Of a stretch of 64,000 nt of DNA, positions 3,436-50,382 are shown one piece after another (within the stretch, counting starts at the first letter, position 1; every line of letters starts with the position of its first letter). A program made the position numbers and the translations under genes. The stretch comes from Naegleria gruberi (taxonomy: Eukaryota). The stretch lies in the NCBI GenBank assembly GCA_000004985.1, contig GG738881.1; one strand, written 5' to 3'. The notes under the pieces are model-generated. The model did no database searches. It saw only the letters and a list, made by a program, of their open reading frames with translations, and was not told the DNA's origin.

Positions 3436-5235
3436 ATGATCAAGAAACCAGAACTCTTTTCCGACGATATTTGTTTTGAAATTCTTTCCCATTTGGCAAA
3501 TGATTGGAAATTTATTTTCACAACTTGTTCATTAATTTCTCAACAATGGCTAAATGTTATTAAACACAATTCATCATTGTTGAATCTTTCCATTTATTTT
3601 AATCAAAAACTAAATGATGAACAGAAAAATCAAATGTCAAAATGTGAATTATTAACATGTTTATCCAATGTGAAAGTTTATTCAAAGATTGCGAAATGGT
3701 TTTGTACAAATATTGGAATATTCATGAAAGGAATGATTAGATTAGAAATTAGCTATTGTCGTTTGGAAGCAGAAGATGTCAATTTTATTGGTGAAATGAA
3801 GCAATTAACTGAACTTGATATTAGTTTAAATAATATTAATTGTAAAGGAGCTATTACTATCAGTCAATTGAGTAAATTAACTAAACTCAATGTTTATCAA
3901 ACCAAAATGGGTGTTGAAGGTGCTAAAGAACTAAGTAAATTGAAAGAACTAACATCCCTCGAAATAGGAGACAATCATTTAAAATCTGAAGGAGCAGCTC
4001 ACATTGCCCAAATGAGAAAATTAACATTCCTTGATATTAATACCAATATGATTGGAAATGAAGGTATTGAGCTGATAAGTAGAATGGAACAATTAACTGA
4101 TTTAGATGTTATGGATAATAATATTCGATCAGAAGGTGTTAAATCACTCTGTAAAATGAAACATCTTACTAATCTAAATATTGGAAACAATCCAATTGAA
4201 GATGAAGGGGCTATATTATTAGGTGAAATGAAACAATTGAAAAATCTCATTACAGCTTGCAACAATATTGGGATGAAAGGATTTAGCTCACTTAGCACAT
4301 TACTCAATTTGGAATCACTTGTTATACTTGGATTAGATGGTAAATCTACTGATTTCATTCGTGAAATGAATCAATTAACTCGTCTTGAATTTTATGGTTC
4401 TAACCTTGAGCCAAAAGGTTTCGATCCAATTAGTCACCTGTCCAATTTAACATTTCTAACTATAAGGGGTCGAAATATTGCTGATGGTGACTTGGAATGT
4501 ATTGGTCAATTTAAAAAGCTGACCACACTTAATGTACCATCATGCAATATTAATCAAGGATTTAAATCAATTTGTGGGTTGAAGAATTTAACATTCCTTG
4601 ACTTGAGCTATAACAAAATTGAAAGTGTTGAATCAATTACTAATTTGAAGAGTTTGACACAACTTGACATCAATGGGAATCGAATTGGACATGAAGGAGC
4701 AAAATCTATCAGTCAATTAGACAATTTAACTAATCTCCAAATCGGTCATAATTTAATACAAGATGAGGGAATCAAGTATTTAAGTACTATGCAGTGTTTA
4801 ACTACTCTGGGTGTGGCTGAAAATCAAATAAGCATTGAGGGTGCCAAGTTCATAAGCAAATCTCATCAATTGACTTCACTTGATCTCACAAACAACGTTA
4901 TCGAAACTGAAGGAGCCAAAATTTTGAGTGAGCTCAATAATTTGACAGGGTTATTTGTTTATGGAAACAGAATTAGAGATGAAGGAGCCAAATATATCAG
5001 TACTATGCAACAATTAACAATTCTTGATATTGCCTATAATGAAATAACAGATGAAGGAGCAAAAGCAATAAGTAATCTCGATCAACTATCGACACTTTAT
5101 ATTTATTCAAATGAAATTTGTGATGAAGGAGCAAAATCCATTTGTGGAATGAAACAATTGACCATTCTTGATATTGACTATAATGTACTTAGTGAAGAAG
5201 TATCCAATCAATTAAGAATGGAATACCACAACTAA
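3436..5235 (+). CDS. F-box-like N-terminus plus ribonuclease-inhibitor-type leucine-rich repeat protein (~20 RNI-like LRRs).
   Basis: ORF track, 599 aa. The N-terminus FSDDICFEILSHLAN is F-box-like. The motif L..LT.LDI..N.IG.EGAK.IS is repeated throughout. Confidence 0.7.
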   Translation: MIKKPELFSDDICFEILSHLANDWKFIFTTCSLISQQWLNVIKHNSSLLNLSIYFNQKLNDEQKNQMSKCELLTCLSNVKVYSKIAKWFCTNIGIFMKGMIRLEISYCRLEAEDVNFIGEMKQLTELDISLNNINCKGAITISQLSKLTKLNVYQTKMGVEGAKELSKLKELTSLEIGDNHLKSEGAAHIAQMRKLTFLDINTNMIGNEGIELISRMEQLTDLDVMDNNIRSEGVKSLCKMKHLTNLNIGNNPIEDEGAILLGEMKQLKNLITACNNIGMKGFSSLSTLLNLESLVILGLDGKSTDFIREMNQLTRLEFYGSNLEPKGFDPISHLSNLTFLTIRGRNIADGDLECIGQFKKLTTLNVPSCNINQGFKSICGLKNLTFLDLSYNKIESVESITNLKSLTQLDINGNRIGHEGAKSISQLDNLTNLQIGHNLIQDEGIKYLSTMQCLTTLGVAENQISIEGAKFISKSHQLTSLDLTNNVIETEGAKILSELNNLTGLFVYGNRIRDEGAKYISTMQQLTILDIAYNEITDEGAKAISNLDQLSTLYIYSNEICDEGAKSICGMKQLTILDIDYNVLSEEVSNQLRMEYHN

Positions 5236-5437
5236 TTCATATCCTAGATGTTGCTATGGTTTGAACGTAGCTATGGCTGATGTGGAAGGAATCAAAGGGA
5301 GAACTCTCCTCCTAGCGGTATGACAATGTCCAAAGGAATGAATCAACACTTGAAGGCGTAAAATCATTTAGAGATATCATTAAGTTCGTTGCATATTTTT
5401 GATTATTCTCATATAATTATAATATAATGGTTCGACT

Positions 5438-7958
5438 TTAAATGGTCATACAGAAAGAGACAACGTCATCCAATACTTCAGTAACTCTTGAATACTGAAC
5501 TGCACTCATTTTCTTAATACAATTAGAGATTGGAATAATGTTGTATTCTTCAAAATGAATGTCATTACAAATCTCTTCACAAACCCTGGAATAGTTTGCC
5601 ATTATCTTTTTAATAACCACAGACAGTGCAAATATATCATGTTTTACCGTGAATCTGATATTCGGATCTTGAGGTGTGTAATCATCTTTGTAATTCAATA
5701 TACTTTGTTGATTGGAATTCAAGCATTTAGAGTTATTGAAATCTATTAAAACAGCATCAAAATCGTAACTGGTTTTCATTCTAAACATAATGTTATGAAC
5801 ACTGACATCACAATGAACAATGCCCTTATTATGAATGCATTTAAGAGCATGTAAACACCCTATCAATGTCTTCAGTATGATTGTTCTTATAATGGAATTT
5901 CCTTGATACTCTTGATTACTTTGCATCTTTTTTATCAGCTCATCATAGTTTAATAATTTTTCTTGAACTGTAATATTTAATTGGCTATTTACAGGTCCAT
6001 AATAGAAAATATTGCAAATATTAGGGTCTCTAATTTCTTTCATCAATTTCATTACAAACACATTGTCGATTTCTCTATTTGTAATCTTGAAATAAGATTC
6101 CTTATTCTTATATTGTATGGTTCCTAGAATTGATTTTTGTTCTAACTTTTCCATTTGCAAGTTGCTAAAGTCTAATCCTAAATCAAGATCATGAATACTT
6201 TGGGAAAGTTTAAAAAGAGAAGTATTGTTGTTATCGTTATGATCAATGTTATTGTCTACGGTACAATCGTCTTTCCTTTCATTTTCATCCTCAAAATCTT
6301 CTTGATCGTTCCCATCTTCAATTCTAGAATATATATATTCAATTGTTCTCATTGAAACTTTAAGAAACCAATACCTATAAGTAAACTTCTCACCTTCAGT
6401 ATTGAAAAATAATTGAATTTCATTCATAGGATGGGGACACAATTGTCCCCTTGGATAAATATTCAATTCGTAAGGTTTTTCCTTAGTAAAAAATAGTAAG
6501 GTTCTGCCTTTTTGGTTCAGAAAAGTTTTGTGACAAGAGCTTTTGAGTTCTTTTTGGATTTCTTCTTCAACAGGTAGTGGATATCGTAGTATTTGAGAAA
6601 AATGTTTAATGGCTTCATCGGGCGTTTTGAATTCATATAACATTCGTTGAGGGAAAAATTGATGTATCATAATTGACTGATTCGTTATATCAAAAAGTCC
6701 TGGATCTGTATTGGACTTTGAAGTTGTTGGTGTATCAGATATGTTCCTCACCTTTTTTTGGGCTTCATTATTGAAACTCTTGTTCAAACAGTTTTTTCCA
6801 ATTTGAAGAAGTATTGATACAGCTTTAGCTCTTCCGTTCGATGTGTTAATATCATACCATTCCGAACTGAATAATCTAAAACTATAACTAAAAATTGTAG
6901 TATTACTACTCTTTGGAACAAGATAAAGTCTTAAAAAGCAAATTTTGGTCCCACCTGAGAGCGATCCAAAGGTGTCCAATTCAGTATCTGAATTAAGTAA
7001 ATCATTTGAGAACAAGTTATTCATCAATTCTTTTAAAGATCCTCTCATTAGAAACACAATTTTCTTAAAGTCTGGATGGTCGTAAATAGAATCCACTTCA
7101 ACTGGTTTCCATTCTCCAAAAAAGCACCTCCAATCATGGTCTTGAATAATATTTCTGCGAGTCAGTATTTTATCAGGTAAGAAATATTTGGTTGTGAAAT
7201 ATTGTGCCAATCTTGTTTGATTTTCCAGTGATTGTTGCCTGGAATTTAAAAGAATTGATTTTCGAGTGATTGTTGTCTCAATTCCAGAATTTAAAAGAAT
7301 TGATTACATACCCAGTAGAGGTCAATTTTCCCTGTGAAATACTAATAAGAAAGGCAAACAGAATGGAAAGAGTTTCCTGATAGTTCATTTCTGATTCCTG
7401 TTCAAAATGTAAGTTCTGCAATGCATAGAGTGGTGAGAGTAATGGAGTTGGATTGTTGTTCTTGTAGGAGAAGAACAGTTTTTTGGAGAACTCAATAGGA
7501 CAATCAACATTTTCAATTTTGTCTCGATCAAACACACGCTCCATATCTTCTTCAACTTTTAACATGTCTCTATTATCATCAAACACAATGCCTGTTGGTT
7601 TAAGAGAAATCAAGCCTTTTGCAAGAAAAGATTTTGTACTTATTGACAAGCTAGGAGCAACTTCATTGTTCTCTGCCTCTATTCTATCAATAACAGTCTT
7701 TTCTTGTTTTTCAAAAAAGTGTTTCATTATCAATTCCTCTTTTGTATTATTAAACGCTAATTCCAAAGCACTCTTCCAAGAACTTTGAAGATAATCAGGT
7801 ACTTTGGTCATGAATACATCTGAATCACATAATTTAAAATCAAGGACCGATAACACCTCATAATCACCTAAATCATCGGCATTCAAAATAGTTGCCTTGT
7901 GATTCTTCTTATCATATAAACCAGGCCAATTTAACATTCCAAATGGTCCATATATCAA
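5438..7958 (-). CDS. Protein with a C-terminal atypical kinase-like (probable pseudokinase) domain. The 590-aa ORF plus the upstream 226-aa ORF are probably one multi-exon gene.
   Basis: ORF track. The catalytic-loop-like segment GIVHCDVSVHNIMF has HCD in place of HRD, and VLIDFNNS has DFN in place of DFG. The upstream ORF (7278-7958) stays open to ~8036 without an ATG, so further 5' exons may lie toward the gap at 8368. Confidence 0.45.
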
Positions 7959-28457: not shown

Positions 28458-29363
28458 ATGCTCACACATCAAACTTCTCTCTTCCGAAGTGTTGTCAGAA
28501 GAAGCTTTTGTTCGTCATCATCACTGCTGTTATTAACAAGGAGAAATTTTACCACAACAATAATTTTAAATAATAATCAGGAAAAAACAAGAGTTAGACC
28601 GTTGACAGAGAAGGACAAACTTAAACAGAGACAAATTAATTTCGAGAAGAGGCTGAAGGAATTGGATGACTCTGCTATCGATCTAGGTAATAATGAAACT
28701 TTGAATCAACCACCAAAAAGTTTTGAACAGAGATTGAAGGAATTAGAAAGAAATGCAACTACAACAAAATCCAAAGTTCCGAAATGGCTTAAAGAACATC
28801 ATACAAGACATCCAACACCATATTCGATATATGTGAAACAGTGTTGGAAAAATGCAATTGAACATTATGAAAACAACAAGGAACATTTTGATAATTTATT
28901 TCCAAATTTCGAGAAACGAAAGAATTTGATGATTTCAAAAATATTAGCACTTCAGTGGAAAACATTGAAAGAAGAGGATAAAAAAATATATTACGATACT
29001 CATGAGGAGATTAAAAAAGCAAATCCTTTACCAATCGTGGATGATAAACCAGAGTGGAAGAAAATTAAAAGACCAAGAACAGCTTTCCTACATTTCAAGA
29101 TGGATATTTTCCAGAGTGTGAAATCTCAATTTGCAAGCTACAACATCCAACAATTGAATTTTATTATTTCTGAAATGTATAAAAAATTACCAGAGGATAA
29201 GTTGGAATATTACAGAGGACTTTGCTCTAAAGAAAGAAGCCAGTATTATAAACTAAAAGAAGAAACGATAAATAAGCATAAGAAGCCAACAGAGGAAATC
29301 AAACAGGAGGATTATGAAAATGAGGAAGAGGATGATGAATACGAAAGTGATGAATTTTATTAA
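28458..29363 (+). CDS. Mitochondrially targeted protein with two HMG boxes (TFAM/Abf2-like).
   Basis: The N-terminus MLTHQTSLFRSVVRRSFCSSSSLLLLTRRNF looks like a presequence. The two HMG-box-like segments are KVPKWLKEHHTRHPTPYSIYVKQCWK... and KRPRTAFLHFKMDIFQSVKSQF.... Confidence 0.6.
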   Translation: MLTHQTSLFRSVVRRSFCSSSSLLLLTRRNFTTTIILNNNQEKTRVRPLTEKDKLKQRQINFEKRLKELDDSAIDLGNNETLNQPPKSFEQRLKELERNATTTKSKVPKWLKEHHTRHPTPYSIYVKQCWKNAIEHYENNKEHFDNLFPNFEKRKNLMISKILALQWKTLKEEDKKIYYDTHEEIKKANPLPIVDDKPEWKKIKRPRTAFLHFKMDIFQSVKSQFASYNIQQLNFIISEMYKKLPEDKLEYYRGLCSKERSQYYKLKEETINKHKKPTEEIKQEDYENEEEDDEYESDEFY

Positions 29364-29404: not shown

Positions 29405-32400
29405 TTATTGGAGTGAATAGGTAATTAAATACTTTGGATAAGCTTGTGAATTTTTGTAAACAATGAAAATATCACTTCCACCAGTATTTCCCTTCACACT
29501 GTCATATCTTACAGCAGAGTTTGGCTTGAGAGGAGGAATTCTAATATTACTATTTGAACTACAACTGTGAAAATCACCTGTTAACACTTCAGCAAGGAAA
29601 AATTTTCTGTAATTAGTACCTGGAACGGGAAAAGCATAGCCATTAGAATAACTTGCATTGACAGCAAAATAACATCCAATTCCCCACATTCCAGTATTTG
29701 AAAATCTCATGTCAAATCCTTCATGACCATCATAGATAATGCTTGGATCTGTACTTCTTGTTCCATGGAACAATAATTGAGGATCGGTTGAATATTGTCC
29801 ATTTGAATCAATCTTAATCTTGTTGATTCTATCTTGTTCAGTTTTATAACTTTGATAAACCAATTGATTTTGAACTTTTTCAATATTTTGAATCACTGCA
29901 TTTGGAATGGTCAATTTAATTCTATCATTGATCATTTTCCATTCATTACTTGATTGAGATAAATTGATGAGAATTACATTTGAAGTTTGAAGCTGCCAAT
30001 CTTGAGGATAACTGAATTTACTCAACAATTCAGGTTTATCAGCAATGGTCAAGAGAGCATATTCCTTAAATTTGTCAACTGTATACTTGAATCCAGTAAT
30101 TGTAAATGGTGATACGTTCATATCAATCTTTAACATTCCATTATCAAATTTTGCTTTCATTGATGCATGTTCTGATAGAATGTGATCAATTACAAACTTG
30201 TTACATGATTTTGTTAAGGACTCGGTAATGTAGCTTTCTTTGATATTATTTCTAAAATTAAGCTCGAATGATTGAACATCTGAAGCTTCTCCATAAAGTC
30301 TGAATGAATAAACAGATTCAGTTACGCTTGCATATTTAGTTTTGCTAACTGATTTAACAATTTGAATGGGAACAGTATCAGTAATTAGTATTCTGTTATG
30401 AGCAGATCCACTCACAAATGTGTAATGATTGTCATCTTGATCATAAACATACAAGATGGAATTCTTATTCAAATCTGATGCAACATCAATGTTACACTTC
30501 ACAATTTTTTGAATTGGTATCCTCTTAACTCTTCTTACATATTGAGTTTGTGAGTTGACTTGAACGTGCTCTTCTTTAAGGTAATCGAATTTCACAAAAT
30601 ATTTGATATCTTCAGAGGTATACTTTTCATTAGTCATCAGTACATTACATTCAGTATTTCTTTCATTATAGCTCCTTTCAATTTCTTTCATTTGATTTTC
30701 TCTATAAGGATTCCATGTCTTGTTATCATCAGCCAACCATAGCCATAAAGCAGTCAAATGTTCAGTATCCATTGTTGGAACATAAATAATCTTTCTCTTA
30801 AATTTAGAAGAATTTTCAATTTGTTCCATCTTGTCAAAGTCAATTTGGTACTTTTTACCTTGTTCCGCATTCAAAATGAAAGTTGACTTGGGATCTTTTT
30901 CATATTCTTGACATAATTTACGATTATCATTCACTGTGAATGGCAAATACATCTTTTTGATATCATCAAAATATTTGAAACATCCAACATATTCATCTTG
31001 TTCAATTTCAATAAATGAGGAATCATTCTTTGTATCTAATGTATAGACTAGATCTGTTTGTAATAAGTTGATAGATTTTGAGAATGATTCAGTAACTGTA
31101 TTAATATCACCAATCAGTATAATTTCCCTCAAACATGATAATTGTGGTGCATATTTGTAAATTGTTCTGACAATGATATCAGTTGATTGATCAAGTGGGA
31201 ATCCAAATATTCCAGATGAAAGTGCAGGAATAATGATTGAACAATATCCATCCTTTTCTGCTTGAGTCAAAATATTCACAACTGTTTGTTCAAGTAAACT
31301 ACATGAGTTAAGATGATTATTTGAATCATACATTGGAGGAATGGCATTATAAATCTTTGAGAGGTAACTGAGATTTCCAGCAGTTGTTGGAACTACATCA
31401 CCTGGTTTGAGTTTAAGAGAGGTGGTAATATTTTTACATTCTTGATCAAATTGTTTTCCACATTTCTCTAAACATTGAGCAGCAATTCCTCCACCATGTG
31501 CCAATTGGTCATTTGCACTGTTAACAAGTACTTGAGCTTTCCATTTCTTATCAAACATGTCACCTTGACAAATGTAAATAAATGAATTCTCAATTTTGTG
31601 AACTTCCTTGATTCCACTGTCAAGTTTCTTTTCCAAAACAACCTTACCCTTTGTCTCAATATTCTTTTCTGAAAAGAATTTGAATTCATCATGTTGCATT
31701 CTAATAAAGTCAACCAATACTTTCTTTCTCACTTCCATCATTACTCTGTGATAGGAATTGTCAATGAATTTGTACATATCTTGAGATGGTGCAACTAATG
31801 TAATTGATAGTCCTTGTTCTAAAATCTTTACATTATTTTGTTGAACTGACTTGAGAAGTGGTAATGCAAGATTCTTTTCAATAATATTATTAAAAGTCAA
31901 TTTGATTCTCTTTTCTTTTGATTGCAAAAGTTCAGATTCAATTCTTGATTTCACTTCCTTCACATCTTCATCTCTTAATCCCTTGATATAAAAAGTCTTC
32001 TTATTTGAATCAAAATCAACATTAATTGATGAAATATCCTTCTTGAACTTGTCAATCTTGGTTTTAACAGTTACCTTTTTCAGTAAATGTTCATTGACTT
32101 GTTTTGCTTGAACAATATCAGAGCTTCCTTTCAACAATTCACTCAATTCATTTCTAATCTTCATTTCATTTTCTTGATTTTCAACAATAGCAAATAAAAT
32201 AATAATGTTCTTTGACTTTTCAGGTGCCAAAACTGTTGAGGCAGTTTGAATTTCTGTTAATTGCTCAAAATATTTCTCACCTTCCTTTTTAACATCTTCT
32301 TTCAAAGAGGCATGGATAAATTGTAATTCCAATTTAACACTTTTAATTTTCTTAAGCTCTGCTTGCAATAATTGTCTTGCCTTTTTAGGTACATTTAATA

Positions 32401-33755
32401 CGATCATCTTACTGGCATCCTTTTCGTCTCTCTTGCATTTGAATTCAATTTGGCCACTCTTTAATAAGTGAGAGCTGAACTTTCTCAAGAACTTATATTG
32501 TGTAGTTTCTATAGTTACTGGATTCTTTGTATCACCCTTCTTAATCTTGTTAAAAACTTTGTATTCACTTTCACTCTTCAAAGTACATTCAATTTGAAAG
32601 TTTTCATTTTGTTTGGTATATTTAAATTGAATATTTTTGTTAAACAATTCCTTTTTTGTAGCATCAAAATCATCCTTTGGAATTGAAAACTTAATTTTGA
32701 ACAAATCAATAATTAATTGATTGTTATATATATCACTCAATGAAGTTAAGTGCCAAGTAGTGAAATTTTTCTTGGATTCTTCAATATATAAATATACACC
32801 TGGTGGCAATTTCTTTTGAACTTGGTCTTTCTTTTCATTGCTATTTTCATAATAAAATTCGACGAATCTTGCAGGTTGCAATAACTTGATAACAAGATTT
32901 TGTAAATATTGTTGAACATTTTGAATATTTGGTTGTGTTGGTTGAATTTTGAAAGTAATTGTCTTATCTTTGATCTCAAATGAATTGTTTGTACCACCAG
33001 ACATTTGTGATAACTCTCTTCTCAAGTCATCACTGAAGAATTTATCCAAGGCAACTGCTTTGATTCCAGTTGGAATTTCAATAGAATAAACTCCAGCAAC
33101 AGTTTTCTTTGGCTTATTGTCAATGGTAATTTCAAGTGGTTCATTATAATACTTGATGGAAGAACATTTTTCTTTGATTATCTTGGCAATACCATATGTT
33201 GAAATATTGACCCAAATAAGTTGTTTCTTCTTATTGGTAGTGAGTACAGGTTTAACTTTTTCTTCATTAAGAATGTTTCCAACTAATTCTGGAACAGTCA
33301 ACTTGATATTGAAGAGTACATCATTAAAATCAACACCAAGAGGGAATACAATACGAACAGCTTCAGTTACAACGGCACTAGATGTTGAATCAAACGAAGT
33401 GGAAGAACTAGGTGATACTTCTCTATCACTAAAGTTATCAATTGGTGTTTGAGGAGTTGAACTAATTCTTTGATTCATTCTCAAAGGATCAATTTGAATG
33501 TTAGTCATTTGTTGATTCATCATTTGACTATTATTCATAGTGTTATAATAGGTATTGTTGTTTGGATTACCATAATTATTATTGGTATTCATAGGTTGGT
33601 TATAATTCATAGAAATTTGATTAGTATTGCCATAATTATGCATACTACTACCAGTACTATTATAATTCAAAAGCAATTGTTGATTACCACCACCCATTGT
33701 ATTACTAATAGGATGAACCATGGTTTGATCATAAGGATTGTTCATACCATAACCA

Positions 33756-33786
<31 letters not shown>

Positions 33787-34105
33787 AATTAGCATTAAAA
33801 TCATATTGATTCATATTGGTATGATTATTAAGTAACAATCCATTTGAACCATATTGATTGTTACTTAATGAATTGATAGGTTGTTGTTGTTGTTGGCCAT
33901 TCATTGCTGAAGAATTAGTGTACATGTTGCTTTGAATGGGATCATTAAACATTTGGTTATTATTACCACCATAACCTTGATAGAATTGACCACCATTATT
34001 GTACATATTTTGTCGGTGATTTTGCTCTTGGTTTGGTTGTTGGTTATAACCTTGTGTTTGATTTTGTGGAGTTAGCATATTTCTGGTTTGTTGAATAAAA
34101 CCCAT
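29405..34105 (-). CDS. Macro-domain + WWE + PARP-catalytic ADP-ribosyltransferase (PARP14-like macroPARP) with a Q/N-rich N-terminus.
   Basis: Macro signature VLVNSANDQLAHGGGIAAQCLEKCG at ~31.1-31.6 kb. WWE-like LTALWLWLADDNKTWNPYRENQMKEIE at ~30.5-30.8 kb. PARP catalytic LFHGTRSTDP...GIGCYFAVNASYS...FLAEVLTGD...IFIVYK at 29.4-29.8 kb. The third triad position appears to be Ile, as in mono-ARTs. Confidence 0.85.
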
Positions 34106-34459: not shown

Positions 34460-36463
34460 TTAGAAAAGGCCGTGATCTCTCAAAGTCTTTTGTAAAATAA
34501 TATCCTTAATATCATCCATAACCATCAAAGAAGCATCTTCACGTATCAAATCAACAAAATGAGTGTATAAACACCGTTGTCTAATTGTTGGATCAACATT
34601 AATAAATTTCTCAGCAACAAAACTAGTGTAGAGGAATACATGATCACCAGAATAATCAAAGTCTGGAAAACACATTCGAAGAGGAACAGATTTGATTCTT
34701 TTACGGAATATATCTAATTTTGTAAATACTAAAATGATTGGTGTATCTTTGTAAAAGCTTAAGATTTCTTTGAACATTGAAAGTGAATTATGCATATGGG
34801 AAACCAATATTTGGTTTTGAGTTGGAGGAACAAAATTTAGAGGGTCAACAATTGGTGGGCTTTGAGGATTTTTAGTTGGACTAAAGTCAAGTAAGCTTAA
34901 AGAATATTCACAATATTCACTTAAAGAAACCATGAAAACAATTGCAGAAACTGAATCTCTATCAAAATGAGAAGTCATCCACTTTCTTCTTTCATTTCTT
35001 TGTCCAGTAATATCTACAAACTCACATGGGAACGGAAAATTTAACTGACATGTTTCAATAGATGTAGAAGGAAAATATGTAGTTAAAATATCTCTTGATG
35101 TTGGTGTATATCTTAGTGATGCTATTCTGTCAATATTATCAAAAAAGTATCTTGCATTGTAAAGTATTGAGTTATTTAAAGATAACTTGTCAAATGTGTG
35201 TTTTACGTATTTATCCTTCCATAAACTCTTAAATAATTCAACTGCTTCTGGATTTAAGAAATTTTGAGTAATCTTATTAGATTCCTCTGATTGAGTATCA
35301 TATTGTGATGGTTGTTTGTGGAATTGTTTTGAATCATTTTTAAAATTACTTAATCTTTGGTGAAGAACGTTTAAACTTTCATCCAATGATGATGAAACTC
35401 TTAAAGGAGATTTGTTCTTTGGAGTTATAGGTATGGATTGGCTTGTATTATTACTAGCAGCACTATCACTATTGCATTCATTTTGTGTATTTAAAGTTTG
35501 ATTAAACCTCCAAAGTTGAAGTAATTGAGCTCTTCTCCTTAAATTTTCTCTAAATTCTGTTTCCGTGACATTCTTAATTAAATATTTTGCATTATTCAAT
35601 ACAAATTTCAATATTTTACATTTAAATAATTCTACAACTTGTTCATTCGAATAATCACCCTCTAATAATTTGATTTTTCTAATGAGGGTACTTTTTCCTG
35701 ATTTACCAGATCCAAGAGTTAAAATTCTAACTTTTTTAGGTTTTTTAGAATCCAACTCGATTTGCCTTTGGATTCTACGATCATTTTCATTGTTATCAAC
35801 ATCAGATGAAACTCTTTGAATGTTTGATGCTGATCGATCTAAACTATTGAAAGATGCTCTTCTACGAGGTGTTGTGGTTTTCTTTGAAGGTAAAGCATCA
35901 TCACTTGGTGAATTACTTGTAGGAGATGGTGAACCAAAAACCATTTGATCATCATTTTCTATTGCTAATTCAATCATGGCATGAGAAGATGATGATCCAT
36001 TAACGTCTTCATCCTGAATTAGACTTGATGTAAAATCATTGATTGAACTCAAGTCAGCAGTTGATTGTCTAAGAATATTAGAATGTTCTCTATGATGATG
36101 CTCCCTATTCTGAGTTGATGATGATGATGGTATTTCATTATTCTCCAAAGAGGATGATGCATCTCCTTCTATTATTTCAAGTTCCTCCTCGCTTCTATTA
36201 TGACGTCCTACAATTATCTTTGGTGATGAAGTAGATGACGAGCTATTATTCAAACTACCACTACTACTTGCTGCTGTTAAAATGTTATTATTATTATTAT
36301 TGTTTTGATTCGGAATTAAAAGAATTTGAGAACCACTATCAAATGATGAAGATAAAGATTGTACACTAGCAGTGTCATTGTCTTGTTGACTAGATAATTG
36401 CTGAAAATCTGTTGTAGATGTTCTCCTCTTTCGTTTTGAATATTTGAATGGATTGAAAGGCAT
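34460..36463 (-). CDS. Divergent heterotrimeric G-protein alpha-subunit-like protein with a ~240-aa S/N-rich N-terminal extension.
   Basis: P-loop [49 protein letters not shown] aligns with G-alpha [39 protein letters not shown] replaces NKKD. Confidence 0.7.
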   Translation of the reverse strand: [667 protein letters not shown]

Positions 36464-48498: not shown

Positions 48499-49965
48499 TT
48501 AATTTTTATCAACAACATTCTTTAACATGTCTTTTAATTCGTCACTATAGTTTGCATTCAAACATTCTATATCATTGGTAACATATTTAGAAAGTGTGAC
48601 AAATGTTTTTGGAGCTGTTGAATTTGAAAGTGTTGATGATGAAATACCTTTCCATTTCAAATCATCATCATTTGATTGACTTGTATCATTTGTATTTGAA
48701 TTATCAATATTATTATCAATAGTATTATCAATAGTATTATTAGTATTATTATTAATATCTGATTGTTCTTTTTGTTGATTTAACATTAAATTTGAATGAA
48801 TTAATTTAGAATCAATTGATACATTTGGAATGAAAGATTGATTTGAATTCTTATCATAAAATTTAAATTTCTCAACTTCTCTAAAACGAATATCCAATAA
48901 TAAAATGTAACGATCTTGATCTGTGAAATTATATGCTTCATGTGTAATGTAATCATCAAATCCAAATACAACTCTCTCATTCCAACAATGTCTTATATTA
49001 CCAACTCTAATAGCACATGCATGATGATTGGATGAAGGAACAATTAAACCCATATGAACTCTTAAACAATGATTACTATATCCACAATATCCCTTATGTG
49101 CAGAAATATAACAATTTGAACTTAAACAACTAAAACCAGCAGTTGTAATATGAACATTATATTCCTTATTCAATCTTGAAAGTAATTGAACTGATTTTGG
49201 ACATTTTGTTGGTTCATTTGTTAAATCACGTCCAAATGCAAATCCCAATGGATAAACTTTCCATTTACCTTTAGTTTTACAAATTGTTTCAGGCCATGCT
49301 TGAAAATCATTTTCTTCTTGTTTTAATAATTCATCCAATTCACTCCTTATTAAATCATAATTTGATTCTAATTCTGAAAAGAATTTTGAAATATTTGAAT
49401 ATTCTTCTCTCAAACTACTGAATGGATCATTTTTATAATAGAAACATTTTTTACCAACATCATCCATTGATAACCAATCCCAATATAATCCTCTATCTGT
49501 ATTATATTCTTTTTTAACATTTTCACCTGATAAATGTACATTATCTGTTGTTATTATTATTTTATTATTAGAATTATTAGAATTATTATGAGAATTATTA
49601 TTATGAGAATTATTAGAATCTATGATAGAAGGATGATGGTGATGGTTGACTTGATCAGATGATGGTAATGTTACATTGTTATTATCAGTAGTATTATTAT
49701 CAGTATTATTAGTATTACTAGTATTGTTAATAGTGTTATTATTATTATTAATAGTATTGTTTAGAAATTCTTGTTTACAACAAGTACAATTATTATCAAC
49801 ATGCCAATCTTGATGAATTTCTTGTAGTTTTTTAATTTTCTTTTCAATTACTTGTTGATCTCTAATAGGATTATTATCGGGATTATTCTTTCTTTGATCT
49901 TCTGTTATATTAAATGTTGTCTCTTCATTATTTGATGATGATGATACAGGAAATTGATCACTCAT
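48499..49965 (-). CDS. Aspartyl/asparaginyl beta-hydroxylase-family 2-oxoglutarate/Fe(II) dioxygenase-like protein with an N-rich N-terminal half.
   Basis: C-terminal block SAHKGYCGYSNHCLRVHMGLIVP...CAIRVGNIRHCWNERVVFGFDDYITHEAYNFTDQDRYILLLDI matches the AspH signature (H.G...RLH.GL..P..C.IRVG...W.EG....FDDS.EHEV.N....R..L..D). Confidence 0.6.
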   Translation of the reverse strand: MSDQFPVSSSSNNEETTFNITEDQRKNNPDNNPIRDQQVIEKKIKKLQEIHQDWHVDNNCTCCKQEFLNNTINNNNNTINNTSNTNNTDNNTTDNNNVTLPSSDQVNHHHHPSIIDSNNSHNNNSHNNSNNSNNKIIITTDNVHLSGENVKKEYNTDRGLYWDWLSMDDVGKKCFYYKNDPFSSLREEYSNISKFFSELESNYDLIRSELDELLKQEENDFQAWPETICKTKGKWKVYPLGFAFGRDLTNEPTKCPKSVQLLSRLNKEYNVHITTAGFSCLSSNCYISAHKGYCGYSNHCLRVHMGLIVPSSNHHACAIRVGNIRHCWNERVVFGFDDYITHEAYNFTDQDRYILLLDIRFREVEKFKFYDKNSNQSFIPNVSIDSKLIHSNLMLNQQKEQSDINNNTNNTIDNTIDNNIDNSNTNDTSQSNDDDLKWKGISSSTLSNSTAPKTFVTLSKYVTNDIECLNANYSDELKDMLKNVVDKN

Positions 49966-50382
49966 GATTAAAATAATAATAATAATAATAAATAATATAG
50001 ATGATGATGATGGTGGTGATATTAGTGATGAATAATTTTGTTGTTATTAAATGGGTAGGAGTAATAAATTCCGTGCAACACAGGAAGACTCTGAAAATAC
50101 AATCAACTAGTGCAACACTTGAAAAGCACGTTTGAAGGCTTTTTTTTAAATAATATATTATGCGATAAAAATGATTGAGAGTTGCCTTGTTTATTCATAT
50201 GCAATGTTTTTAGCCTTTTTTGTCATCACTTTAAAAAATTCACCAATTTCCCTTTCTTTGTAAAATTGAATGATATGACATATTACAACCAATCAAATAA
50301 ATTGTAATATTATAATATATTATAATAATAATTGAATAATTAGAATAATTAGAATAATAATAATTAAAAAAAGAATGAATAT

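Follow-up and report, generated by a model that had tools for sequence, protein, structure and literature searches.

A stretch of 64,000 nucleotides from Naegleria gruberi (contig GG738881.1 of assembly GCA_000004985.1), hereafter called the window, carries at positions 29405..34105, on the minus strand, a gene for a large predicted protein in which a macro domain, two WWE domains and a C-terminal ADP-ribosyltransferase (ART) domain of the PARP/ARTD family follow one another. The coding sequence is complete and consists of a single exon encoding 1566 residues and a TAA stop: the open reading frame (ORF) begins with its first ATG at 34105, contains no internal stop and ends with the stop codon at 29405-29407. 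The second methionine, codon 10 (34076-34078), is the start of the NCBI model XP_002674999.1, which is accordingly 1557 residues long, and from Met10 onward our protein is identical to EFC42255.1 / XP_002674999.1 / UniProt D2VM45. The NCBI record, which lies on a 380-kb scaffold, bears the name "PARP family member 14-like protein [Naegleria gruberi]", and precomputed Macro, WWE and PARP domains for the D2VM45 protein are already found in public databases. Our protein belongs to a known class of enzymes and has already been annotated in databases; it represents neither a new system nor a new mechanism. Because it matches N. gruberi XP_002674999.1 exactly, and thus comes from Heterolobosea (Discoba), a remark on the expanded PARP repertoire of dictyostelids, made in the original prediction for this DNA, does not apply. 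All protein features described below lie on the minus strand of the window.

Domain content of the protein

The Pfam hidden Markov models (HMMs) of the macro, WWE and PARP families all gave significant matches within this one polypeptide, above their curated cut-offs, and the catalytic Glu was found to be absent from the ART domain. Both observations agree with the original prediction, which had been made from the sequence alone and which proposed a macro-WWE-PARP protein with His, Tyr and a hydrophobic residue at the catalytic-Glu site.

The PARP/ARTD catalytic domain occupies residues 1377-1565 (29411..29977), and its Pfam match (PF00644, residues 1387-1564) has an E value of 1.3e-17 and a score of 64.4 bits for a cut-off of 26.7. 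An AlphaFold2 (AF2) model of residues 985-1566 was built on an alignment of 58 sequences, the closest relatives, and reached a mean predicted local distance difference test (pLDDT) score of 77.8. In this model the ART domain was at pLDDT 95-98, and Foldseek matched it to PARP15, PARP12 and PARP14 with template modelling (TM) scores of 0.84-0.89 and E ~1e-15. A sequence search of the PDB with the same domain gave PARP15 as the best match (92 bits), followed by PARP12 and PARP14 (72-73 bits), PARP10 (48 bits) and the tankyrases (~38 bits).

The PDB alignment and the 58-sequence alignment both placed the catalytic triad at His1447 in LLFHGT (29765..29767), Tyr1479 in GCYFA (29669..29671) and Ile1546 in DIFIVY (29468..29470). 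Ile1546 occupies the catalytic-Glu site of PARP1 and tankyrase, and is aligned with the Leu of the KLFVVF motif of PARP15. Among the 58 homologues, this third position was filled by Val in 43, Ile in 11, Met in 3 and His in 1, and by Glu in none; H1447, G1448, Y1479, F1480 and Y1486 were invariant. As these NAD+-pocket residues are invariant and the third site of the triad is V, I, M or H, an NAD+ pocket of mono-ART type seems to be under purifying selection. PARPs with an H-Y-I/L triad (PARP10, PARP14, PARP15) are mono-ADP-ribosyltransferases (PMC2964712, PMC4245714), and the H1447-Y1479-I1546 triad predicts a mono-ART of this kind. Judged by its sequence, the protein belongs to the PARP catalytic family and to its H-Y-hydrophobic clade-3 group.

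The macro domain, of PARP14-macrodomain-1 / MacroD type according to Pfam and to the best PDB match, spans residues 844-1010 (31076..31576). The Pfam Macro match covers residues 861-978 (E 4.6e-24, 85.1 bits for a cut-off of 22) and is the only one in the whole protein; the three tandem macro domains of animal PARP14 are not present. When the macro domain was used to search PDB sequences, macrodomain 1 of PARP14 was the best match with 69.8 bits, as against 30.7 bits for macrodomain 2. Loop 1, which carries the N-x6-GGG motif, corresponds to residues 862-875 (NSANDQLAHGGGIA; 31481..31522) and is aligned with NASNEDLKHYGGLA of PARP14 macrodomain 1. Loop 2, with the GIFG motif, corresponds to residues 963-970 (SSGIFGFP; 31196..31219) and is aligned with SSGVFGFP of the same macrodomain. 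Thus, both macro catalytic loops are retained in the N. gruberi protein.

Two WWE domains follow. The Pfam WWE family (PF02825) matched two stretches (E 3.2e-16, 59.9 bits for a cut-off of 21.1), and residues 1010-1200 scanned alone gave E 1.8e-18 and 67.1 bits. The first domain, at residues 1041-1110 (30776..30985), corresponds to the second Pfam WWE stretch and also has a weak WWE_5 match; the second domain, at residues 1119-1197 (30515..30751), contains the best Pfam stretch (1120-1195). AF2 modelled both as beta-rich WWE folds at pLDDT 80-96; compared pairwise, WWE domains of known structure showed a similarity too weak for individual residues to be mapped. Between the WWE pair and the ART domain, residues 1202-1272 (30290..30502) form a segment without resolved structure (pLDDT <50), with 31% identity to the corresponding part of the Naegleria fowleri protein described below. 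Directly upstream of the ART domain, residues 1292-1356 (30038..30232) were modelled at pLDDT 76-89 as a type I KH-topology domain (beta-alpha-alpha-beta-beta-alpha). This unit has no Pfam match and no GXXG loop, and its putative assignment to KH is by topology only.

The first 235 residues (33401..34105) constitute a low-complexity, almost uncharged region that is predicted to be disordered. It contains 60 Asn, 32 Gln and 16 Tyr, which corresponds to 39% Q+N, and there are 6 charged residues within the first 205 positions. The original prediction had called this N-terminus prion-like; the Q/N-rich, charge-poor composition was indeed found, and the term describes composition only, similar tracts being present in several neighbouring genes. 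Tracts with at least 40% Q+N over 80 residues occurred in 4 of the 35 long ORFs (at least 200 residues) of the window, so that such tracts characterise the genome in general rather than the PARP gene in particular. The N-terminus of the N. fowleri orthologue is uncharged as well, P/Q/S/G-rich and ~120 residues long.

Between the Q/N-rich region and the macro domain, AF2 predicted an RRM-like domain with a ferredoxin-like beta-alpha-beta-beta-alpha-beta fold at residues 248-328 (33122..33364; pLDDT 72-85), followed at residues 338-800 (31706..33094) by ~6-7 repeated beta-alpha(alpha)-beta-beta-alpha units of KH-like topology, modelled with low confidence (pLDDT mostly 50-75). In the model concerned, which covered residues 236-860, confidence was also low around residues 800-860. 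In fold searches with multi-domain models, the best-folded domain, either RRM-like or ART, determined the outcome, and the individual KH-like units were not classifiable. At low confidence, the modelled array may be regarded as compatible with KH domains, which are not established by it. A sub-threshold Pfam match to KH_PARP14_3 (E 0.033) was located at residues 685-725, and no KH Pfam match reached its cut-off. Aligned by hhalign with the N-terminal half of fish PARP14, the middle region gave a best P of 0.06, and the reversed control gave 0.72. Also, BLAST with residues 700-838 alone returned no matches, and the upstream extension of the macro alignment is consequently not independent evidence for homology to the KH domains of PARP14. 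Taken together, the layout that we infer is Q/N-rich region - RRM-like - (KH-like)n - Macro - WWE - WWE - unknown - KH-like - ART.

Relatives and genomic setting

Apart from the query, a full HMMER scan with residues 236-845 against 1.84 billion representative sequences recovered only N. fowleri XP_044569422.1 and one environmental fragment of 75% identity. The N. fowleri orthologue (1494 residues) is collinear with the N. gruberi protein from the low-complexity N-terminus to the C-terminus, with 35% identity, and its catalytic triad is H-Y-V. NCBI divides this orthologue into two gene models, the RRM-like N-terminal part being a separate gene of 250 residues. Identity between the two species amounts to 53% in the ART domain, 54% and 53% in the first and second WWE domains, 42% in the macro domain, 31% in the RRM-like domain and 26% in the repeat (KH-like) array. 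The existence of a collinear orthologue at only 35% identity indicates that the gene is older than the split of both species.

In N. fowleri, the orthologue lies within a tandem cluster (VFQX01000002.1, 8771-21468). Two downstream paralogues of this cluster (1034 and 1250 residues) match the macro and WWE region only, with 26-27% identity and E values of 1e-28 and 4e-34, and have no PARP catalytic match. No such tandem cluster was found in the N. gruberi window, and no immediate neighbours are shared with the N. fowleri locus.

Outside Naegleria, a transcript of the amoebozoan Arcella intermedia (EukProt EP01124_P002545, 1058 residues) encodes a protein with the same Macro-WWE-PARP order. One alignment of the two proteins runs from the second WWE domain across the linker and into the ART domain with E 1e-50, another covers the macro-WWE region with E 1e-23, and the N-terminal region of the Arcella protein gave weak, sub-threshold matches to four different KH families at E 0.02-0.2. 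When the ART domain is considered by itself, the closest relatives, at 40-47% identity, are environmental sequences, Arcella and the ciliate Halteria, and animal PARP14/15 stand at ~30-32%. Long-query word-index searches, in which the 8000 candidates with the most shared words were scored, gave almost no matches and say little on the spread of the family.

The closest metagenome relatives of the ART domain are PARP-only proteins of 200-350 residues encoded on megabase-scale contigs. The one contig inspected (ENA ERZ21788760, ctg99389l, PARP-only protein at 6001-6660) is gene-sparse, and hence is probably eukaryotic DNA that was run through a prokaryotic gene caller. A bacterial origin of these PARP-only relatives was considered and dropped on the basis of this contig. 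The same contig suggests that the PARP-only metagenome proteins are terminal exons of larger genes of uncharacterised eukaryotes. Giant-virus contigs from IMG/VR (e.g. GVMAG-M-3300023174-189; 4956-5480, 4944-5489) also carry genes for stand-alone ART proteins, 174-181 residues long and with a triad of H-Y-I type, which are located directly downstream of a gene for a Lon-like AAA protease. Identity with the Naegleria ART domain is 31-34% at these two loci and 27-34% over the viral relatives as a whole, and the viral proteins are devoid of macro and WWE domains.

The GC content of the PARP gene, 29-31%, is in line with that of the surrounding 44 kb, and its neighbours are ordinary eukaryotic genes, one for a two-HMG-box protein and one for a G-protein alpha subunit. 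The former gene (28458-29363, plus strand) encodes 301 residues and is convergent with the PARP gene, with 41 bp between the stop codons; its product has a Ser/Arg/Leu-rich N-terminal stretch that resembles an organelle-targeting presequence. The latter gene (34460-36463, minus strand; Pfam G-alpha E 1.6e-69) has a 225-residue low-complexity, Ser/Asn-rich N-terminal extension. Elsewhere in the window, a 488-residue ORF (48499-49965, minus strand) contains an Asp/Asn beta-hydroxylase domain (E 7.9e-38) and shows a weak, sub-threshold match to the SPX domain (E 1.4e-4, 22.5 bits for a cut-off of 27.8). Between positions 50000 and 60000 the GC content is 16-24%, as compared with ~31% in the first 44 kb, and long ORFs remain there (STL11-like protein, WD40 protein).

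Predicted activity and competing explanations

We consider it probable that in N. gruberi the protein represents the clade-3 macro-PARP (PARP14-like) class and would unite writer, eraser and readers of ADP-ribose in one polypeptide. Domain content and order, motifs, conservation of the NAD+ pocket and orthology within Naegleria were observed directly, and it is from them that we infer the enzymatic and binding activities proposed here. The ART domain, with its H-Y-I triad, is predicted to use NAD+ for attaching single ADP-ribose units to acidic residues in proteins, and possibly to phosphorylated RNA or DNA ends as well, in the manner of human PARP14 and PARP10. As the domain lacks the catalytic Glu, no chain elongation is predicted. 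The single macro domain would probably bind and hydrolyse mono-ADP-ribose, and in this way limit the output of the enzyme itself; such activity is probable because the domain is similar to macrodomain 1 of PARP14 and has intact loops 1 (N-x6-GGG) and 2 (GIFG). Macrodomain 1 of PARP14 and that of PARP9 are active hydrolases (PMC10499325, PMC10221186). They hydrolyse Glu-linked and nucleic-acid-linked mono-ADP-ribose, which restrains the output of PARP14 itself (PMC10499325). The tandem WWE domains would probably bind an ADP-ribose-derived ligand and help to target or regulate the ART domain. Further upstream, the RRM-like domain and the KH-like array may tether the enzyme to RNA or protein partners, and the uncharged Q/N/Y-rich N-terminus may drive its concentration in condensates. 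As to function, one may speculate, by analogy, on a role in stress or antiviral defence.

Several observations weigh against a PARP14-like assignment. In human PARP14, three RRMs and eight type I KH domains are combined with a WWE domain and an ART domain, and three macro domains split one of the KH domains (PMC10450202). The Naegleria protein has one macro domain where PARP14 has three, so that the reader macrodomains 2 and 3 of PARP14 are absent; it has two WWE domains and not one, and its KH-like unit follows the WWE pair and precedes the ART domain, which departs from the KH8-WWE-ART order of PARP14. The KH-like array comes from a low-confidence model, built on a 4-sequence alignment and with a mean pLDDT of 56.8. 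The GXXG motif is absent from residues 236-1375 except in macro loop 2, and a PDB profile search with the middle region gave 0 matches at E<=10. Sequence homology of the middle 600 residues to the KH domains of PARP14 was considered and found to be unsupported by hhalign, BLAST, the PDB profile search and HMMER. Also, loop 1 of the macro domain reads HDAGV in N. fowleri and HGGGI in N. gruberi, and the macro hydrolase activity may thus not be conserved within Naegleria. Such losses are recurrent in mammalian PARP14 (PMC10221186).

The same differences in the number of macro and WWE domains and in the place of the KH-like unit would fit an architecture that arose by independent domain shuffling in protists, that is, a protein PARP14-like in function but not an orthologue of PARP14. 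This convergence, which we regard as possible but rather unlikely, is also favoured by the N-terminal 600 residues, which have no detectable sequence similarity to PARP14, by the proposal of Perina et al. (2014; PMC4245714) that macro domains were gained by PARPs on two or more occasions, and by the protist and environmental nature of the nearest ART relatives, animal PARP14/15 being more distant. However, the macro domain is specifically like macrodomain 1 of PARP14/PARP9 and the ART domain is like those of PARP15/14/12; other hallmarks of PARP14 (PMC10450202), namely RRM-like and KH-topology units, are predicted here, and the amoebozoan Arcella has the same domain order. It is improbable, on the other hand, that we are dealing with a scaffold or reader without catalytic activity, comparable to PARP13 or PARP9, in which macro and WWE domains bind ADP-ribose and no transfer takes place. 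In PARP9 and PARP13 the His/Tyr or other NAD+-pocket residues are lost, whereas the 58 homologues here show no variation at H, G, Y, F and Y, and the ART domain is among the best-conserved parts of the protein between the Naegleria species; the altered macro loop of N. fowleri and the inactivity of some clade-3 PARPs (PMC2964712) would nevertheless be in line with such a scaffold.

That the gene was recently acquired by horizontal transfer, with an animal, a giant virus or a bacterium as donor, or that it is a contaminant in the assembly, appears very improbable. The patchy distribution of macro-PARPs and the clade-3-like ART domains encoded on giant-virus contigs could be taken in favour of this explanation. 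Yet the collinear orthologue of N. fowleri, at 35% identity, speaks against both acquisition and contamination, as do the GC content, which is that of the flanks, and the position of the gene on a 380-kb scaffold, 41 bp from the convergent HMG-box gene and adjoining the G-alpha gene. The short PARP-only matches on long contigs, for their part, lie in gene-sparse, eukaryote-like DNA. A giant-virus origin in particular was rejected, as the related proteins of viruses are short, consist of an ART domain alone, lack macro and WWE domains and have the low identity given above.

Retaining the assignment to the clade-3 macro-PARP class, one may ask how old such an enzyme is. That a PARP14-style writer, eraser and reader enzyme, equipped with an RRM/KH-like array, a hydrolase macro domain of the macrodomain-1 type, WWE and an H-Y-hydrophobic ART domain, predates the divergence of Discoba and Amorphea, near the root of eukaryotes, or that it spread early among amoeboid protists, is a tentative proposal that we hold to be unlikely at present. 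If true, it would mean that an ADP-ribose-based stress or antiviral module is ancient, and is not an invention of animals or of 'unikonts' as proposed in 2014. In that case, the Naegleria protein may have a part in conflicts with giant viruses, whose own genomes include genes for stand-alone ART proteins of H-Y-I type.

Comparison with earlier work and known systems

Human antiviral immunity and cancer are active fields of PARP14 research, and evolutionary analyses of this protein have dealt almost exclusively with animals. In the survey of Citarelli et al. (2010; PMC2964712), Naegleria PARPs were found only in clade 1B, apart from two unplaced short H-Y-E proteins, and the sole non-animal macro domain noted was carried by a U-box protein of Dictyostelium. 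From choanoflagellates and Amoebozoa, Perina et al. (2014; PMC4245714) described "PARP14-like" proteins in which macro, RRM and WWE domains are combined, and they also reported a macro-PARP in Paramecium. In their proposal, the macro-PARP ancestor arose early in unikonts. Later studies on the evolution of macro-PARPs were confined to metazoans (PMC10221186, PMC13224862). The statement of the original prediction that this architecture was regarded as metazoan is therefore outdated, since non-animal macro-PARPs were reported in 2014 (PMC4245714) and the NCBI name of the protein is already PARP14-like. In the literature searched, we found no published description of a heterolobosean macro-PARP and no discussion of this Naegleria protein.

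We report here a collinear orthologue in N. fowleri and, from Arcella, a protein whose domains follow one another in the same order. Also new are a single macro domain which, from its sequence, appears closest to the hydrolytically active macrodomain 1 of PARP14, both active-site loops being retained, and, as predicted by modelling, an RRM-like domain, low-confidence repeat units and a KH-topology domain before the ART domain, none of them with a GXXG loop or with a significant resemblance in sequence to the KH domains of PARP14. These data extend the documented range of macro-PARPs to Discoba, beyond the 'unikont' origin proposed in 2014, with a heterolobosean protein of the same enzymatic logic present both in N. 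gruberi and in the pathogen N. fowleri. With its single macro domain, this version of the PARP14 logic offers a simpler case for the coupling of transferase and hydrolase, and its value is comparative and modest.

The protein has the minimal set of domains that defines a macro-PARP, and does not reproduce the full architecture of animal PARP14. The U-box-macro-PARP of Dictyostelium (DDB0232928; clade 3D of Citarelli et al., 2010) is likewise a non-animal clade-3 PARP with a macro domain, but it differs by an N-terminal U-box and has no reported WWE domain. PARP12 and PARP13 (ZAP) share with the Naegleria protein a tandem of WWE domains upstream of a clade-3 ART domain; PARP12 has an H-Y-I triad, and its ART domain scores about the same as that of PARP14 (72-73 bits). 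These two proteins contain CCCH zinc fingers and are without a macro domain, whereas the Naegleria protein has no zinc fingers. The Arcella protein EP01124_P002545 is collinear from the macro domain to the C-terminus, with the order Macro - WWE - linker/KH-like - PARP and an H-Y-V/I triad. It belongs to another eukaryotic supergroup, and its shorter transcript model (1058 residues) is without the Q/N-rich or RRM-like N-terminus. PARP14 (ARTD8, BAL2) differs, in addition to the points raised above, by Leu in place of Ile as the third residue of the triad and by the long Q/N-rich N-terminus of the Naegleria protein, and the RRM/KH region has no significant sequence similarity between the two, the Naegleria protein being without GXXG loops in this region. 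Both proteins nevertheless have in common a C-terminal mono-ART domain of the H-Y-hydrophobic type, a macro domain of the macrodomain-1 type with loops 1 and 2, WWE upstream of the ART domain, and perhaps also RRM-like and KH-topology domains (only predicted in Naegleria) on the N-terminal side of the macro domain, as well as a large size, 1566 residues for the Naegleria protein and 1801 for PARP14.

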